This document shows positions 2,762-60,943 of a DNA stretch of 64,000 nt, piece after piece. The position numbers were made by a program, and so were the translations under genes. The notes under the pieces were generated by a model, which searched no databases, was not told the origin of the DNA, and worked only from the letters and a program-made list of their open reading frames with translations. Positions within the stretch are counted from its first letter, which is position 1; each line of letters starts with the position of its first letter. Source of the DNA: an uncultured Caldisericales bacterium (GTDB lineage: Bacteria > Caldisericota > Caldisericia > JAAYUI01); assembly GCA_964639885.1 (NCBI GenBank), contig CAZXEH010000001.1, positions 151,205 through 215,204 on the forward strand, given 5' to 3'.

Positions 2762-4516
2762 ATGAGTTTATGGACTAGACTTTTTTTGACATTCGTTCTC
2801 TGTCTCCTGATCACCCTGATTTTCCTTGGTGTCTACCTGACCATCAACCTCAGGCATTTCCAGCTTGAGGAGACATCGGCGTGGCTGACGATCCAGGCGA
2901 GGGTTCTGGAGCCAAAGATCAGATCGTATATGACAGTTGAACCGCCGAGGTTTTCCCTTACCAATCAGCTTGACGATGAACTTGGCGGATACAGCAGATT
3001 CATGGGCATAACCCTGCTTGATCCGTCTGGAAAACTGGTTTGGAGCACCATAACAAATGATACAGCCGACTGGTCTGACAAACCAGAAGTTGTTGCAGTC
3101 AGGGACAGACGGGAGAATGGCTCGGACACCAGAGATTTCCTTGAACATAATAATCTTTTCATCGCAATCCCGATTGTTTCTTACAGCTCAAGCGCAAAAA
3201 TCATAGGAATCATTGATGTCAACTACTCACTGGTCAACGTCGAGGAACAGACCAGGCAGTCAGTGAGGTTCATTTTTGCAACATTCCTCATAGCAATGCT
3301 TATCGGCGCCCTTTTCATATACAACGTCGTCCAGTTCCAGATTCAGCCGCTCCGCAACCTGATTCTTGTTGCGTCAGCAATCTCGGCTGGTGAATATGAA
3401 AAGCAGTTTGAAGTTCATGGCTCAGATGAGGTTGGACAGCTTGCCAGAGCTCTACAGGTTATGGTGGCCAAACTGAAGTCCGCCCTTTCGATTGCTGCCA
3501 ATGAGAGATCGACCCTGCAAGGTGTTTTCGAAGGCGTTGTTGACGGTTTGATTCTTGTCGATCCCCAGGGCAGGGTGCAGCTTGCCAATCTGGCTGCCTT
3601 GACGATGTTTGGTCTCAGTGACACAAGCATTGAGGGCAAACTGATTGAAGACACCGATTTTCCTCCTGACCTGACAGAGTTTCTCAAAACCACAAAAACA
3701 AACGCTGAGACCGAAATCAAGTTCAATAAGCCCCAAAGAAGGTTTGTCAGGGTTAGAGCCACTCCTGTCAATCAGGATGAATCGGTTCTGGGGTTGCTGG
3801 CAATCTGTGAAGATGTAACCAGGATGAGACTTCTTGAAGCCAACGAGAAAGAATTCACCCAGTACATCAGCCATGAGCTCAAGACTCCGCTTGCATCGTT
3901 GTCTGCATCGGTTGAAACCCTCCAGACTTCGGCAAAAAACGATCCAAAGGCTCAGGTTCATTTCCTGAACAACATAAACGAGGATATTGTCAGACTGACA
4001 AAACTTGTCAACTCACTGCTCACTTACCAGAGGATTCAGGCAACGCCCGATGAGATGAACAGATTTGGTTCGGTGGAGCTGATACTGGAGATTCACTCCA
4101 AGTTCCTGGCCTATGCGAACAAAAAGGGCATTCTGCTGGATCTTGATGTCCCTGATGATGAATACGACGTTATCGCTTCCAGAGACAGAATCATTCAGGT
4201 TCTCCTCAACCTTGTTGACAACGCCCTGAGATTCACCAAAAAGGGCGGAACGGTCTGTCTCAAGCTCCAGGCTGAGACTAAACGTGTAAAAATATCCGTC
4301 ATCGATACCGGTGTTGGCATCCCGAAAGACTTTGTCGACAGAATGGGCGAAAGGTTCATCAAGATTCCAAGAAAGGATCACCAGTTCGACACAAATGTCG
4401 GTCTCGGAGTCGCCATCTGCAAGGAAATCCTGAAACGTCACGGATCGACGCTGGAGATTGAGTCGGAAGAAGGCCAGGGAACCACTTTCAGCTTCCATCT
4501 CAGACGAGCAAGCTGA
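2762..4516 (+). CDS. Membrane sensor histidine kinase (two TM segments flanking a periplasmic domain, HAMP, PAS, HisKA, HATPase_c). No response regulator lies next to it.
   Basis: N-terminal TM helix and a second TM near residue 170. HAMP-like segment (QPLRNLILVASAISAGEYEK...). H-box ISHELKTPLASL. N/G boxes LLNLVDNALRFT and DTGVGIP...GLGVAICKEI. Confidence 0.85.
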   Translation: MSLWTRLFLTFVLCLLITLIFLGVYLTINLRHFQLEETSAWLTIQARVLEPKIRSYMTVEPPRFSLTNQLDDELGGYSRFMGITLLDPSGKLVWSTITNDTADWSDKPEVVAVRDRRENGSDTRDFLEHNNLFIAIPIVSYSSSAKIIGIIDVNYSLVNVEEQTRQSVRFIFATFLIAMLIGALFIYNVVQFQIQPLRNLILVASAISAGEYEKQFEVHGSDEVGQLARALQVMVAKLKSALSIAANERSTLQGVFEGVVDGLILVDPQGRVQLANLAALTMFGLSDTSIEGKLIEDTDFPPDLTEFLKTTKTNAETEIKFNKPQRRFVRVRATPVNQDESVLGLLAICEDVTRMRLLEANEKEFTQYISHELKTPLASLSASVETLQTSAKNDPKAQVHFLNNINEDIVRLTKLVNSLLTYQRIQATPDEMNRFGSVELILEIHSKFLAYANKKGILLDLDVPDDEYDVIASRDRIIQVLLNLVDNALRFTKKGGTVCLKLQAETKRVKISVIDTGVGIPKDFVDRMGERFIKIPRKDHQFDTNVGLGVAICKEILKRHGSTLEIESEEGQGTTFSFHLRRAS

Positions 4517-56268: not shown

Positions 56269-57576
56269 ATGAAACCGATGTTTTGTGTGCTTGCAGTCGT
56301 GATGCTTTTCAGTTTTGCAGGATGTGGCCAGAAGGAATCGAAGCCTGTTGTTGCGCTCTGGCAGGGCGCTGGATTGGATTCCTGGCATACAGGATCAAGC
56401 AAAGAGCCGTTACTTGCACCGTTTGGAAAGGAATGGAATGCTGAACTGGCTGGCCTTGGTTTTGGAGCAACAGTCGTTGTCGACGTTCCTGACATCGATC
56501 TCAAGAGCAAAAAGCTAGTCAACAGACTTGTAATCACCTCAACAAATGATGGCGCTGTTTATGCTTTTGACTGGGATACTGGAGAAAACATCTGGAAGCA
56601 GAAATTCGGTGGAGCAATGGGTGATCCGCTGTTTGTTGACAGCAAGATTGTCGTTACCTGTTCGGATGGCTCGATAAACACTATTTCGGCGTGGGATGGC
56701 TCACCTGTCTGGTCTGCAAGGTTCAGGGCTACAACGGCAATTGTTGACCCAATCTGGAATGGAAGACCGGAAAATGCAGCTCTTGTCACAGATGGGAAGA
56801 TTGTTTACTCGGTTCACTCATCAAAAACCGCCAATGCATATAACGTCGTTGATGGCACCGAGCTGTGGAGATTTGATTTCGAGGATGCAGTCATGGCTTC
56901 TCCGGTCCTTGTTGATGGAAAGCTCATTGTTGCAGACTATTCCATGAAACTGACAGCCCTCAAAACCGAAAACGGCAAGCGTGCCTGGGAATCGGCTCTG
57001 GATGACAGGGTGACCACAAGCCTTGTCTCAGATGGGAAAAATGTTTATGTGCCAGGTTCATTTGGCAAAGTTGGTGCATACTCGGCAGCAGACGGCAAAA
57101 AGGTCTGGACGCTTGATATTGGTGGAACAATTGCTGTTGCACCGTGCATTGCCGGCCAGTTCCTGGCAATCGCCGACACGACCAAGAACGACATTTTGTT
57201 TGTTACTACAGACACCGGAATGGTTAAGAACAAGATTGAGCTGAAGAATTTAGTGCCAAAATCAGCGCTTGTTTCATGCCAGAACTATGTATGCTTCGGA
57301 ACTGTCGATGGAAAAGTAATCGCTGTAGACCTTGAAAAGTATTCGTTTACGACTGGTTTTGAGTTTGATTCGGCAAAAATTGCAAACGCAAACAGAATTT
57401 ATGGAAGCCCGGCCGTTCTTGAGGGAAGACTCCTAATTTCTGACGGAATCTCAACATATTATCTGCTTGCACCAAAAGCAATCCTCGACAGCTACCAGCA
57501 GCAACAGCAGCAATCAACACCGGTTCAGAAACCACCGACAGATAACAAGGGAACAGAAAAACCGAAAAATCCGTGA
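56269..57576 (+). CDS. PQQ-repeat beta-propeller lipoprotein (BamB-like fold)
   Basis: The ATG at 56269 follows GGAGG. The ORF track starts at 56224. Lipobox FAGCGQ. Repeated DG..VW / DGK.VW motifs (NGAVYAFDW, DGSPVWSA, DGTELWRF, NGKRAWES, DGKKVWTL). Confidence 0.7.
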   Translation: MKPMFCVLAVVMLFSFAGCGQKESKPVVALWQGAGLDSWHTGSSKEPLLAPFGKEWNAELAGLGFGATVVVDVPDIDLKSKKLVNRLVITSTNDGAVYAFDWDTGENIWKQKFGGAMGDPLFVDSKIVVTCSDGSINTISAWDGSPVWSARFRATTAIVDPIWNGRPENAALVTDGKIVYSVHSSKTANAYNVVDGTELWRFDFEDAVMASPVLVDGKLIVADYSMKLTALKTENGKRAWESALDDRVTTSLVSDGKNVYVPGSFGKVGAYSAADGKKVWTLDIGGTIAVAPCIAGQFLAIADTTKNDILFVTTDTGMVKNKIELKNLVPKSALVSCQNYVCFGTVDGKVIAVDLEKYSFTTGFEFDSAKIANANRIYGSPAVLEGRLLISDGISTYYLLAPKAILDSYQQQQQQSTPVQKPPTDNKGTEKPKNP

Positions 57577-57621
57577 AGTTCAAGATAATTCAACAAAGGC
57601 CGGGGCTTGTTCCCGGCTTTT

Positions 57622-58287
57622 TTATTTCTGGTACCTGGCTTTTTTGGAGACCTCATCGAGTTTCTGTCTTGGGCCGATTGCGATGACGAGATCAGACTCA
57701 GTGAGTGGCATATTCGGATCAGGAGGCATTATAACCTGAAGGTCCTTTCTGAGTGCCACAACCATGATCCCTTTTTCTTCCCTGAGACAGAGTTCGGAAA
57801 TCTTCTTGCCAACCCATTCGTTGGGCGTTGGGAACTCGGTGATGGCGTACTGGTCTGAAATTTCGATGAAATCAAGGAAGTTTGTGCCTGTGATCCTGTT
57901 GACAAGTCTTATGGCCATGTCCTCTTCAGGTGAAAAGATGTCGTCGGCACCAATTTTTTGAAGTATCTTTGCATGGGCGTGAGATTCAGCCCTTGAGATG
58001 ACGTATGGCACTCCAAGCTCCTTGAGCATGGCGGTCAGAAGGATGTTGTTTTCGATGTTCTTGCCGAACGCAACCACTGCAACTTCACAATCGAGCACCC
58101 CTGTAGTCTTGAGCCCCTCCTCGTCGAAATGCCTCATGACGATGACCTTGTCAATTGAATTTCTTACACGCTCGATCTTATCGCGCTCCATGTCAATGGC
58201 AAGGACGCTGTACCCTTTTTCTGCAAGCTCGACGGCAAGGGTCATTCCAAGCCTGCCAAGCCCGAACACTGCAATCTGAAGTGGCAT
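57622..58287 (-). CDS. trkA: TrkA-family K+ transport regulatory protein (RCK N and C domains)
   Basis: Rossmann IAVFGLGRLG. TrkA-C like C-terminus. Confidence 0.8.
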   Translation of the reverse strand: MPLQIAVFGLGRLGMTLAVELAEKGYSVLAIDMERDKIERVRNSIDKVIVMRHFDEEGLKTTGVLDCEVAVVAFGKNIENNILLTAMLKELGVPYVISRAESHAHAKILQKIGADDIFSPEEDMAIRLVNRITGTNFLDFIEISDQYAITEFPTPNEWVGKKISELCLREEKGIMVVALRKDLQVIMPPDPNMPLTESDLVIAIGPRQKLDEVSKKARYQK

Positions 58288-58371
58288 CGGTTCAACACCT
58301 CCACAACAACTATAACTGGTTTCCTTGACTGCCAGTTATTGATTGGTAAAATTCCGCTTCGGAGGTTTGAA

Positions 58372-58533
58372 ATGACGATCAGGATCATAGTCAGAAAACC
58401 GGCAGTTTGCTCTATCGATGACGAAAAATGCAGAGAGTGCCAGACACCATGCAAGTCAGCGGCAAAGACTGCAAACACAACCGGCAACCAGGTCTGCGAA
58501 CTCAAAGGCGAGAACTCACCCTGGATACTGTAA
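58372..58533 (+). CDS. scfA: SCIFF-like cysteine-rich ranthipeptide precursor (53 aa)
   Basis: GGAGG 6 nt before the ATG. Sequence MTIRIIVRKPAVCSIDDEKCRECQTPCKSAAKTANTTGNQVCELKGENSPWIL. It matches the SCIFF core pattern C.ECQT.C.SA.KT...NQ.CE. A radical-SAM/SPASM gene follows immediately. Confidence 0.75.
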   Translation: MTIRIIVRKPAVCSIDDEKCRECQTPCKSAAKTANTTGNQVCELKGENSPWIL

Positions 58534-59852
58534 GCAAAATCCACGTTTTCAAAGTAAACGGAGAGACCCTGTCATTCGATGTTGCGACAGGGTCTCTTCT
58601 TTTTCTGGATGAAGAATCAGCCGATTCGCTCGATAAATTTCGTTCGGATCGTGGACTAACACTTCCCACCGAGATTGCCGACCTTGTAAAGGACGGGGTG
58701 CTTTTCGGGAACGCTAAAATTCCCCCACCACAAAAGCTTTCACCAAAATCGCTGTGCCTAATTGTTTCCCATGCCTGCAACCTGAACTGCTCCTATTGCT
58801 CGCTCGGTTCCGTGACCGGCCAAGGCAAAGTGATGTCCATTAAGACAGCCAGAAAAACGTTGGATTGGCTGATACCGAACGCACCTGGCAAGAAAATAGA
58901 CATCGATTTTTTTGGCGGTGAACCTTTGCTAGCTTGGGAAACAGTGAAGGACGCAGTGCTTTATGGCAACGAACTTGCCAAAACCCACGACAAGAACTTG
59001 AGATGGTCGATGTCAACCAACGCCGTGGGGTTGACTGACGATATACTTGATTTTTGTGACAAATACTACATTTCTTTGGTTCTTAGTCTTGATGGAACAC
59101 GGGAAATCAATGACGCCTACAGGAAAACTCCTGCCAATGAAGGCTCTTTTGATGCCGTTCTCAGCAATATTTTAAAAGTGGTCAAGCGAAGAGAGCGTGG
59201 ATATTACGTCCGTGGAACCTATACCGGCAAAACCATTCATTTTGCCGATCAGGTCATAGCCCTTCACAAGCTTGGCATCGGTTCGCTGGCTTTTGAGCCT
59301 GTCGTGACAACCGATCCTGAACTGGCCATCACTGAAAAACATTTGCCAGTCCTTAGGCAGGAATATGAAAAGCTTGCGAAATATTATGTTGAACAAAAGA
59401 TTTCAGGCAATCCGTTCAGATTCTACCATTTCGAAATGAACCTCGAGCAAGGGCCGTGTGTGAGAAAAAGTGCTGGAGGATGCGGAGCCGGTTGTGAGTA
59501 TCTTGCTGTCGATCCTGACGGGCAGTTTTTTGTGTGCCACCAACTTGATGGGAACAGCGATTTCTGGATGGGTAACCTCAAAACACCACCAGTTCAAAGT
59601 GATTTCGACAGGTGGACAAACAACAACCACCTTTTGACCAAACTAGAATGTCTTGACTGCTGGGCGATGTTCCTCTGTTCCGGCGGGTGTCTTGCAGCAA
59701 ACCAAACAATAAAGGGCGACTTCAAGTCGCTGCATACGATTGGATGCGAGATCCAAAAGATGAGGCTTGAGGCCGCCCTCTGGGTTTATGCCTATTTGAG
59801 GATTTCAGAAGCCAATCCTTCAAGCTCGCTCAATGATTTTTCGAGTTCGTAG
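58428..59852 (+). CDS. scfB: Radical SAM/SPASM peptide maturase (SCIFF-maturase/CteB-like thioether synthase). The true start is uncertain.
   Basis: CNLNCSYC (Cx3Cx2C) and SPASM Cys clusters (GGCGAGCEY...VCHQ; CLDCWAMFLCSGGC). Conserved sequence begins near SKIHVFKVNGE (~58533). The only in-frame ATGs (58428, 58449) lie inside the precursor gene. Confidence 0.8.
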   Translation: MQRVPDTMQVSGKDCKHNRQPGLRTQRRELTLDTVSKIHVFKVNGETLSFDVATGSLLFLDEESADSLDKFRSDRGLTLPTEIADLVKDGVLFGNAKIPPPQKLSPKSLCLIVSHACNLNCSYCSLGSVTGQGKVMSIKTARKTLDWLIPNAPGKKIDIDFFGGEPLLAWETVKDAVLYGNELAKTHDKNLRWSMSTNAVGLTDDILDFCDKYYISLVLSLDGTREINDAYRKTPANEGSFDAVLSNILKVVKRRERGYYVRGTYTGKTIHFADQVIALHKLGIGSLAFEPVVTTDPELAITEKHLPVLRQEYEKLAKYYVEQKISGNPFRFYHFEMNLEQGPCVRKSAGGCGAGCEYLAVDPDGQFFVCHQLDGNSDFWMGNLKTPPVQSDFDRWTNNNHLLTKLECLDCWAMFLCSGGCLAANQTIKGDFKSLHTIGCEIQKMRLEAALWVYAYLRISEANPSSSLNDFSSS

Positions 59853-60178
59853 GTTGTTGCTCCTGTAACTTTTGCTGTTGGACTCCAAAGCTGGTTGCGC
59901 CTTGCAACCCAGTTTTTCTCGAAGTAATTGATAAGCGATTTCGCTCTGCCAATCTTTTCAAGGTCAGCGTTGGGATACTTGTCTGCCATAGCGCCGTTCA
60001 TCTGCTTGATGATGTCCAGATCGCCTTCGATTGCCAGATAGCGCCTGTCAAGCTCGGTGAGTTTTCCGGCTCTGTCGCGTGCTGCTGCCTCGATGGTTTT
60101 CCTGTTTGCAAAAACAACGGCTACACCGACACCGATTCCGATGACAACCGCAACGAGAAGCAAAATGATGATTGTCAC
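59792..60178 (-). CDS. Small N-terminally anchored membrane protein encoded downstream of pspA
   Basis: TM helix MTIIILLLVAVVIGIGVGVAVVF. Its 3' end overlaps the converging rSAM gene by 60 nt. Confidence 0.45.
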   Translation of the reverse strand: MTIIILLLVAVVIGIGVGVAVVFANRKTIEAAARDRAGKLTELDRRYLAIEGDLDIIKQMNGAMADKYPNADLEKIGRAKSLINYFEKNWVARRNQLWSPTAKVTGATTYELEKSLSELEGLASEILK

Positions 60179-60180
60179 GA

Positions 60181-60840
60181 TCAGGCGCCTTTCAGCCTCA
60201 GAAGCCTCTGTTCGATCTCATCCTTTTTTGAGTTCTTTGCTATCTCGTCATCGAGTGAATCAGCGATTGAACCGATTTCTGCAAGAGCCTGAACCTTCTG
60301 CTCCCTCTTGATGACTCTCTGCTCGAGTTCGTCAAAGGTGGTTCCGATGTCCGGGGTTGCAATGCCTGACATTGTTTTTACAACCTTTTCCTGAGCCTTG
60401 GATGCCTTGTCCCTTGCCACAAGCTCGTCGAGTTTCATTGATGCTTCCTCGATCTTTGCCTTGAGGGCATCGAGAACCTGTCTGATCTTGACGTTTGTCT
60501 GTTCCTGTGTTGTGAGCGATTTTTCGGCTGTGGTTTCCTGACCTTCAAGGGTTACGACCCTGGCAAGGCACTTTCTGGCAAGCTCCTCGTTGCCCGAATC
60601 CATTGCGTTCTTTGCGGCTGTGTTGTACTTTGTGAGGTCTGACCTGACTTCGCTGAGTCTGATCTCTGTTGTCTTGGCCGATGCCATCGATTCTGCAAGG
60701 GCATCCGCTGCCTCGGCATACTGCATTCTCATTTCATCGATCTTGAACGGAAGCATCTTTGCCGGGTCTTCCATACCCTTGAGCCAGTCGTTCACGTTGC
60801 TGTTGAGAATGTCACCTATCTTTTTCCAAAATCCTGCCAT
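60181..60840 (-). CDS. pspA: PspA/IM30 (phage-shock protein A / Vipp1) family protein
   Basis: Coiled-coil with the characteristic PspA N-terminus MAGFWKKIGDILNSNVNDWLKGMEDP. Confidence 0.8.
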   Translation of the reverse strand: MAGFWKKIGDILNSNVNDWLKGMEDPAKMLPFKIDEMRMQYAEAADALAESMASAKTTEIRLSEVRSDLTKYNTAAKNAMDSGNEELARKCLARVVTLEGQETTAEKSLTTQEQTNVKIRQVLDALKAKIEEASMKLDELVARDKASKAQEKVVKTMSGIATPDIGTTFDELEQRVIKREQKVQALAEIGSIADSLDDEIAKNSKKDEIEQRLLRLKGA

Positions 60841-60943
60841 TGTCCTAAAACCTCCTTTATGGTTGTCATTATTATTTTACCGGAACTGCGTCATTAGGCA
60901 ATATGCCTTGAAAACAGAAGTGTTTAAGCGCATAATCTGTTTC

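Follow-up and report, generated by a model that had tools for sequence, protein, structure and literature searches.

Can a SCIFF-type peptide system be maintained outside Clostridia when the peptide has lost two of its canonical cysteines and the gene of its modifying enzyme offers no ordinary start codon? SCIFF peptides form one of the most widespread families of RiPPs, peptides made by ribosomes and modified after translation, and are nearly universal in Clostridia. The question is raised by a locus in a 64,000-nucleotide stretch of DNA from an uncultured Caldisericales bacterium (contig CAZXEH010000001.1; this whole stretch is called the window below), in which a short open reading frame (ORF) is directly followed by a radical-SAM/SPASM enzyme. 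An original prediction, made from the sequence alone, had described the pair as a SCIFF-like locus with a cysteine-depleted core. Here, we compared the locus with its relatives. The explanation that we regard as probable is a divergent SCIFF operon with peptide-rich and enzyme-poor expression, in which the maturase would start at a CTG codon inside the peptide gene and a hairpin would attenuate transcription.

The pair is a divergent SCIFF-type ranthipeptide precursor with a CteB/ScfB-like maturase, forming a two-gene RiPP operon. The peptide matched the Pfam SCIFF model (PF13165) with 40.4 bits (E = 2.8e-10), above the gathering threshold of 27 bits, and the model TIGR03973 with 39.2 bits (E = 4.7e-10). 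For the enzyme, TIGR03974 was the best of the 72 families matched (390.8 bits), ahead of NF040492 (341 bits), PapB (231 bits), QhpD (186 bits), and the anaerobic sulfatase-maturating enzyme (anSME) model TIGR03942 (91.7 bits). Two of these scores count against the assignment, as the peptide falls under the equivalog cut-off of TIGR03973 (50 bits) and the maturase under that of TIGR03974 (425 bits). Membership in NF040492, the "not_ScfB" orphan maturases, was rejected at a cut-off of 855 bits and with a cognate peptide present, and membership in TIGR03942 was rejected at a cut-off of 349 bits. The ORF begins with the ATG at 58372, and the start at 58339 given originally is an upstream in-frame TTG. 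The original prediction was otherwise borne out for the pair, since a 53-aa ORF with a strong Shine-Dalgarno (SD) sequence (GGAGG, 58361-58365) does lie directly upstream of a radical-SAM/SPASM ORF that runs to 59852, the similarity of the peptide to SCIFF models is significant, and the closest grouping of the enzyme is CteB/ScfB rather than anSME.

Structural comparison gave the same result. Against solved structures, the maturase matched CteB (5WGG) with E = 1.3e-94 and 321 bits, compared with 7e-12 and 48 bits for anSME. An AlphaFold (AF2) model built from a 60-sequence alignment reached a pLDDT of 92 and a pTM of 0.91, and Foldseek compared it with 5WGG at a TM-score of 0.87 over the full length, and with anSME at 0.65. 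The predicted RRE domain covers residues 7-57 (58539-58691); in the model, residues 7-12, 15-20, and 25-29 form strands, and residues 31-42 and 50-57 form helices. The CxxxCxxC radical-SAM motif is located at 58776-58799 (C86, C90, and C93), and the SPASM cysteines extend from 59457 to 59747. Twelve conserved cysteines, Fe-S ligands included, were kept in all 19 aligned homologues. They include the radical-SAM motif and C313, C321, C339, C377, C380, C386, C390, and C409, which comprise SPASM-domain ligands as expected for two auxiliary 4Fe-4S clusters, and they align with the CteB motifs.

For comparison, a profile search of 1.84 billion proteins gave 312 matches at E ≤ 0.001, of which 150 representatives were aligned. 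A metagenome scan with the peptide alignment gave 18 loci, and a scan of genome contigs gave at least one close relative. Most of the comparative loci are metagenome contigs, the taxonomy of which rests on the NCBI names of identical or near-identical proteins. The window peptide belongs to a clade with five cysteines (five-Cys clade) that comprises nine lineages (window/L001, L026, L027, L028, L004/L008, L009, L006, L003, and L010). Caldisericia loci with all six canonical cysteines (L012-L025), a sister group brought to light by the metagenome scan, served as the six-Cys comparison.

The core of the window peptide reads exactly as originally quoted (CRECQTPCKSAAKTANTTGNQVCE). In the alignment, the canonical cysteines C1, C2, C3, and C6 are kept as C20, C23, C27, and C42 (codons at 58429, 58438, 58450, and 58495), C4 is replaced by Ala31 (codon at 58462), and C5 is replaced by Asn35 (codon at 58474). 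The serine preceding C5 is also replaced by alanine. The original prediction had counted five of the usual six cysteines, and it had two replaced by alanine. The alignment of the 150 representatives corrects the count to four canonical cysteines plus a clade-specific one, Cys13 (codon at 58408), an extra leader cysteine that is found in all nine five-Cys lineages and has no counterpart in canonical SCIFFs. The replacement by alanine holds for C4; the second alanine stands in place of the serine. Similarly, of the GG and cysteine said to be missing before the core, the GG is absent and the cysteine, C1, is kept. The window peptide thus lacks the full set of six conserved core cysteines that characterizes a SCIFF precursor. 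All six were kept in 147 of the 150 representatives, and the remaining ones lose only C4 and/or C5.

The cysteine-poor variant is under strong purifying selection. Peptide residues 20-36 are invariant in the nine lineages, while nearly every codon occurs in two to four synonymous forms; Ala31, for example, is encoded by GCA, GCC, or GCT. The acceptor threonines T33 and T36 (Thr34 and Thr37 of CteA) and C1 are also invariant. The maturases of these lineages are only 52-67% identical to one another and are all intact at 434-460 aa, and in the maturase search the clade was set apart by a gap in score from 484 to 364 bits. The 53-aa peptide is not a chance ORF, because the Pfam match is significant and at least nine diverged lineages have preserved it with only synonymous change in the core. 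Selection also reaches the C-terminus. The W-I-L tail is conserved, with W or F as the last residue in the six-Cys relatives, and Leu53 is written with five different codons; selection therefore acts on the tail as part of the peptide, and its conservation is more than a shadow of the overlapping start. All Caldisericota SCIFFs, six- and five-Cys alike, end in W-I-W, W-I-L, or W-M-F, a tail that clostridial and canonical SCIFFs lack.

The loss of C4 bears directly on the chemistry. The sole thioether demonstrated for Tte1186a and CteA has Cys32, "the fourth cysteine," as its donor, and its acceptor is disputed, being Thr37 in vitro and Thr34 in Escherichia coli (PMC8326336; cross-link statements are taken from this review and from PMC10177961). 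In the CteB structure, Cys21 (C1) contacts auxiliary cluster I (PMC8326336). Because the donor C4 is Ala31 in the window peptide, the Cys32-to-Thr thioether of CteA and Tte1186a is impossible here, and the cross-link pattern must differ from that of CteA, as originally proposed. The conserved threonines suggest that the maturase may link one of the remaining cysteines to T33 or T36, or to another acceptor.

Depletion of C4 and C5 has also occurred elsewhere. In a Caldisericaceae metagenome-assembled genome (MAG; P0159, L029), C5 is replaced by valine, with C1-C3 and C6 kept and the maturase adjacent. In the tandem double SCIFF of Parvimonas (P0160/P0308, L030), both C4 and C5 are replaced by serine in both repeats, again with an adjacent maturase, and in Ca. 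Improbicoccus (P0181) C5 is replaced by asparagine. The two firmicute peptides, from Parvimonas and Improbicoccus, keep the GGCGEC scaffold, unlike the window peptide. With their different replacement residues, these are occurrences separate from the window clade, and the maturase starts are ordinary at the loci L029 and L030. The L029 peptide (1336-1560) is an intermediate that has lost only C5 and ends in a KRWIW tail; its maturase is in frame with the peptide and starts with TTG directly after the TAG stop. In the -1 frame, a relic GTG-GAT-TTG-GTA meets a stop. This junction has been remodelled. The Parvimonas locus (L030, 2501-2779) encodes a 92-aa double SCIFF (…CQSASKTSSGVANQPC…) with a 1-nt spacer to the maturase; it represents an independent double loss of C4 and C5, and the protein was found on more than 300 contigs.

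The second part of the question concerns the start of the maturase, which is encoded in the -1 frame relative to the peptide. As originally noted, the window has no in-frame ATG, GTG, or TTG between the peptide stop and the conserved maturase N-terminus. The next canonical start downstream is the GTG at 58698, 59 codons in, which is an unlikely start because the whole predicted RRE domain (59 residues) would be deleted. Of the two solutions offered originally, an overlap of about 100 nt in different frames or a non-canonical start, the comparative data reject the former and favor the latter, in the form of the CTG at 58521, which gives a 13-nt overlap of the two genes. CTG-GAT is found at the homologous position in every five-Cys locus (nine of nine lineages). 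In the six-Cys relatives, the homologous codon is ATG in ten (L013, L016-20, and L022-25), TTG in L014/15, and CTG in L012; where it is ATG, the maturase ATG-GAT overlaps the peptide codons xxA-TGG-ATx by the same 13 nt, and the N-terminus reads M-D-L-V. Only one nucleotide of the CTG is free, namely the third base of codon 50 in the peptide gene, and it is C in all nine five-Cys lineages (CCC or CGC). In the window genome, CCC makes up 10% of the proline codons and CGC about 10% of the arginine codons. The same peptides show free variation at their remaining Pro, Arg, Thr, Ala, and Ser codons. Thus, the CTG at 58521 is likely to be the maturase start, and we hold this with good confidence. 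The position of the CTG is homologous and conserved in these alignments; that ribosomes initiate on it is what we infer from them. A start at this codon would also explain why public gene calls for the maturase clade disagree (339-469 aa): none is placed at the CTG, and the called proteins are either too long, reaching into the peptide ORF, or too short, with a truncated RRE domain.

Several points weigh against the CTG. The SD-like stretch before it in the window is weak (-3.9 kcal/mol) and lies within background. The aspartate at maturase position 2 gives no independent support for the frame, because it is forced by the W-I codons of the peptide. In addition, a near-cognate isoleucine codon 5 nt past the peptide stop, the ATC at 58539, is compatible with the observed conservation and is the main alternative to the CTG. 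If the maturase were initiated by reinitiation at this codon, which belongs to the K-I-H motif, the C conserved at 58521 would have some other purpose. AUC or AUU is found there in all five-Cys lineages, such a codon equals CUG as a near-cognate start in E. coli, and a terminating ribosome would be within reach. However, all three isoleucine codons are near-cognate, so their presence simply mirrors conservation of the amino acid, and the alternative leaves unexplained both the rare CCC or CGC at codon 50 in nine lineages and the ATG or TTG at the homologous position in relatives. We consider initiation at 58539 improbable. An upstream start at ATG 58428, GTG 58437, or ATG 58449 is less probable still. 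In the window, no stop interrupts the maturase frame as far back as 58428, no other canonical in-frame start precedes the conserved N-terminus, and some gene callers have chosen these codons (P0039, P0040, and P0046), which implies an overlap of 85-106 nt and an extension of 24-31 aa. However, these codons are by-products of the xxA-TGC and xxG-TGC cysteine codons of the peptide and have no SD sequence (+0.3, +0.1, and -5.6 kcal/mol). In 5 of 11 relatives (L003, L004/L008, L010, and L027), an in-frame TGA intervenes whenever Cys42 is encoded by TGT, and in these lineages no canonical start is left before the conserved N-terminus. The extension is not conserved as protein, and the six-Cys relatives begin at the codon homologous to the CTG.

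Two further explanations dispense with a separate start or with function altogether, and we judge both to be very improbable. A programmed -1 frameshift close to where the peptide ORF ends would yield a precursor-maturase fusion, and the maturase is indeed in the -1 frame, which is open through at least the last 10 peptide codons in every lineage. However, the stretch that is open in both frames contains no slippery heptamer of the form X-XXY-YYZ, conserved or otherwise, and a fusion is unneeded where the six-Cys relatives have a normal ATG at the homologous codon. Long proteins in SCIFF clusters do not help, as they are unrelated database noise: natural peptide-enzyme fusions had been suspected from members of 375-813 aa in SCIFF clusters at 90% identity (P0017, P0007, and P0032), and the idea was dropped because these members are unrelated proteins (AprX-like serine proteases and others) brought in by a clustering artefact. 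The other explanation is decay: the system would be a remnant without function, as indicated by its two lost cysteines and lost start codon. It would account for the sub-cut-off scores of both proteins and for a maturase without a canonical start. However, the amino acids of the core are invariant despite saturated synonymous change, the maturase ORFs have stayed intact across nine lineages as diverged as these, the 12 conserved cysteines with the Fe-S ligands are all retained, the synteny is conserved, and the enzyme model is confident.

With the CTG retained as the likely start, its translation has to be considered together with that of the peptide. The peptide SD sequence has a predicted anti-SD duplex of -10.7 kcal/mol, and comparably strong peptide SD sequences (-8 to -13 kcal/mol) were found in all five-Cys lineages and in nearly all six-Cys relatives tested. 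A dedicated strong SD sequence for the CTG was found only in some lineages (L004, -10.0; L026, -8.0; and L006, -7.8 kcal/mol) and was rejected as a general explanation. The six-Cys maturases start at ATG without an SD sequence (-0.2 to -4.5 kcal/mol, with some values positive), while their peptides have values of -10 to -13 kcal/mol. Because even these ATG starts lack an SD sequence and the value for the window CTG lies within background, the argument from SD sequences was replaced by one from coupling. Termination-reinitiation coupling is established for overlapping bacterial genes. The maturase would most likely be initiated at the CTG by ribosomes that have just finished the peptide. In E. 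coli, CUG initiates at about 1-2% of the level of AUG (bioRxiv 10.1101/063800). Since the C of the CTG appears to be held by selection, this may reflect selection for very low synthesis of the enzyme.

A second element that may limit maturase expression is a hairpin within maturase codons 14-28, which begins 27 nt past the peptide stop. Its arms (58560-58573 and 58586-58599) enclose a 12-nt loop and are followed by UUUUU (58600-58604). It has a predicted folding energy of -25.7 kcal/mol, for a z-score of -4.0, and none of 200 shuffled sequences folded as well. When 44-nt folds were compared along the approximately 1.5-kb operon, the most stable one was located 7-31 nt past the peptide stop in eight of the nine five-Cys lineages, at more than 4 standard deviations below the operon mean; L003 is among the eight, with a different hairpin sequence. 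The tails are U-rich in most lineages (6-7 U of 10 nt). In an alignment of 11 sequences, 79% of the cells pair, compared with 44-56% in slid controls, and there are three compensatory (double-change) pairs. Not all observations favor a selected RNA structure. The covariation is modest, as 9 and 23 of 500 shuffles reached the observed values, the arms encode conserved residues (T-L and G-S), and L010 shows no positional signal. The loop is also longer than in typical intrinsic terminators and beyond the limits of the consensus scan, which did not call the hairpin. A search of Rfam found no family for it and only hairpin look-alikes far below threshold. The idea that such a hairpin is a general feature of SCIFF operons was discarded, as other folds are stronger in L002, L029, L030, and most six-Cys loci; the hairpin is specific to the five-Cys clade, plus L019. 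In this six-Cys locus, a perfect 25-bp hairpin without a U-tract (approximately 3119-3172) begins 11 nt past the peptide stop, within the first 20 or so maturase codons, with a free energy of -38.8 kcal/mol (-49.8 kcal/mol for the 110-nt region). For the window hairpin, the chances seem evenly balanced that it acts as a leaky terminator or attenuator, or as a 3'-end stabilizer, that enriches peptide-only transcripts.

Taken together, a strong SD sequence for the peptide, a weak CTG for the maturase, and a hairpin with a U-tract that may end or attenuate most transcripts ahead of the main part of the maturase gene would give abundant peptide and scarce enzyme. A broader proposal combines this with the cysteine pattern, and we put it forward tentatively, as we rate it distinctly below an even chance. 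According to this proposal, C1, C2, C3, and C6 would carry the essential SCIFF function, either as other thioethers or as a Cx2Cx3C...C metal or Fe-S site, and the C4-Thr link seen in vitro would be dispensable. The Caldisericales maturase would have been retargeted, possibly to the leader cysteine or to a symmetric pair of links, C27-T33 and C42-T36, and selection would hold the weak CTG and a translation-sensitive terminator for a very high substrate-to-enzyme ratio.

The features of the locus are listed in Table 1. The promoter-like site was the best in 57500-60900, matching the consensus at 10 of 12 positions plus the TG extension, and lies approximately 8 nt upstream of the SD sequence. 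The terminator-like hairpin begins 41 nt past the maturase stop; the regional total of such matches was not above that of shuffled sequences.

Table 1. Features of the SCIFF-like locus, with positions in the window
Feature	Position	Strand	Basis
Sigma-70-like promoter (TTGACT, 16-nt spacer, TG-extended TAAAAT)	58325-58352	+	Consensus match only
Shine-Dalgarno GGAGG of the precursor peptide	58361-58365	+	Sequence; 6 nt before ATG
SCIFF-like precursor peptide, 53 aa, MTIRIIVRKPAVCSIDDEKCRECQTPCKSAAKTANTTGNQVCELKGENSPWIL; stop codon 58531-58533	58372-58533	+	Pfam PF13165, TIGR03973, alignment
Proposed non-canonical CTG start of maturase	58521-58523	+	Inside peptide codons 50-51 (CCC-TGG)
Maturase, CteB/ScfB-like radical-SAM/SPASM thioether-forming enzyme, 443 aa from CTG	58521-59852	+	TIGR03974, 5WGG
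Candidate intrinsic terminator/attenuator, 14-bp hairpin and UUUUU	58560-58604	+	Folding, positional conservation
Terminator-like hairpin and T-tract, GGTTGCGCCTTGCAACC then CAGTTTTTCT	59893-59919	+	Consensus scan (weak evidence)

The peptide-maturase pair is flanked by trkA-like and pspA-like genes, as originally described; both are on the opposite strand. The operon consists of two genes, and no protease or exporter gene is adjacent. The order trkA / peptide-maturase / orf128-pspA-ABC is common to the five-Cys lineages and is not found at the six-Cys Caldisericia loci. At its 3' end, the maturase gene (+) overlaps convergently, by 61 nt (59792-59852), with an ORF (-, 59792-60178) that encodes a 128-aa membrane protein and lies upstream of pspA. 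The same overlap is found in L026 and L027, and one of 11 nt in L004. On the other side of the locus, a GC-rich hairpin of 11 bp (57595-57621), which has T-tracts on both strands, lies between the convergent PQQ-propeller gene (+, ending at 57576) and trkA (-, ending at 57622) and looks like a bidirectional terminator.

The host is a Caldisericales bacterium of the phylum Caldisericota and is non-clostridial, in agreement with the original prediction. A locus 96% identical to that of the window was found in an uncultured Caldisericales MAG, and related peptides carry the NCBI labels Caldiserica, Caldisericales, or Caldisericia "SCIFF"; JGI also labels Caldisericia peptides "SCIFF." The NCBI names for the maturase clade (P0039-P0059) are only "radical SAM" or "SPASM domain-containing protein," next to a peptide named SCIFF. 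Reviews describe SCIFF as a clostridial family (PMC8326336), and a full-text literature search found no paper that mentions both SCIFF and Caldiseric*. SCIFF outside Clostridia is new to the literature searched and already labelled in databases.

An entire bacterial order that retains peptide and enzyme under strong purifying selection without precisely the donor cysteine amounts to a natural experiment. It points to essential chemistry on other cysteines or to an enzyme open to retargeting, and a peptide with four core cysteines is a simple substrate for mapping that chemistry. The loss of only C4 and C5 across the family leads to a testable ranking of which cysteines matter. In addition, a CTG that interchanges with ATG and TTG at one overlapped position may serve as a clear comparative example of operon stoichiometry set by a non-canonical start codon in bacteria.

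The canonical SCIFF systems are CteA/CteB of Clostridium thermocellum (thermocellin) and Tte1186a/Tte1186 (TIGR03973/TIGR03974; PDB 5WGG). Like CteA, the window peptide has the same leader length, the scaffold C-x-E-C-Q-T-x-C-x-S-A-x-K-T-x-x-T-x-G-N-Q-x-C-E, and the conserved acceptor threonines Thr34 and Thr37, and the operon layout is that of CteA/CteB. The maturase has the RRE, radical-SAM, and SPASM domains of CteB and is 35% identical to it. Unlike CteA, the window peptide has Ala and Asn in place of the donor Cys32 (C4) and of Cys36 (C5), no GG, an extra leader cysteine, and a C-terminal extension of about 10 aa ending in W-I-L. The host phylum and the HMM (hidden Markov model) scores under the equivalog cut-offs also set it apart. 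At the one clostridial locus examined (L002), the peptide gene is followed by a spacer and then by an ATG, unlike the overlapping CTG of the window.

Another comparison is with the six-Cys Caldisericia SCIFFs, which follow the pattern NCRECQTPCKSACKTSCT[IV]GNQxC[DE]...[RK]WIW or EWMF. They share with the window the CRECQTPCKS signature, the aromatic or hydrophobic tail, the 13-nt overlap, and a maturase start without an SD sequence. They differ from it in having all six cysteines, a start that is mostly ATG, no conserved post-peptide hairpin except in L019, no trkA or pspA nearby, and maturases only 32-42% identical to that of the window. More distantly, PapB, which acts on PapA (freyrasin), and QhpD also belong to the SPASM radical-SAM enzymes and likewise make thioethers at non-alpha carbons. 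Their HMM scores are the next best, far below ScfB/CteB, and their substrates differ from the window peptide: PapB acts on Cys-X3-Asp repeats and QhpD on a protein subunit. Against this background, three features of the Caldisericales system appear to be new: the loss of the donor cysteine with the rule that only C4 and C5 are lost, the conserved overlapping CTG start, and the clade-specific hairpin after the peptide gene.

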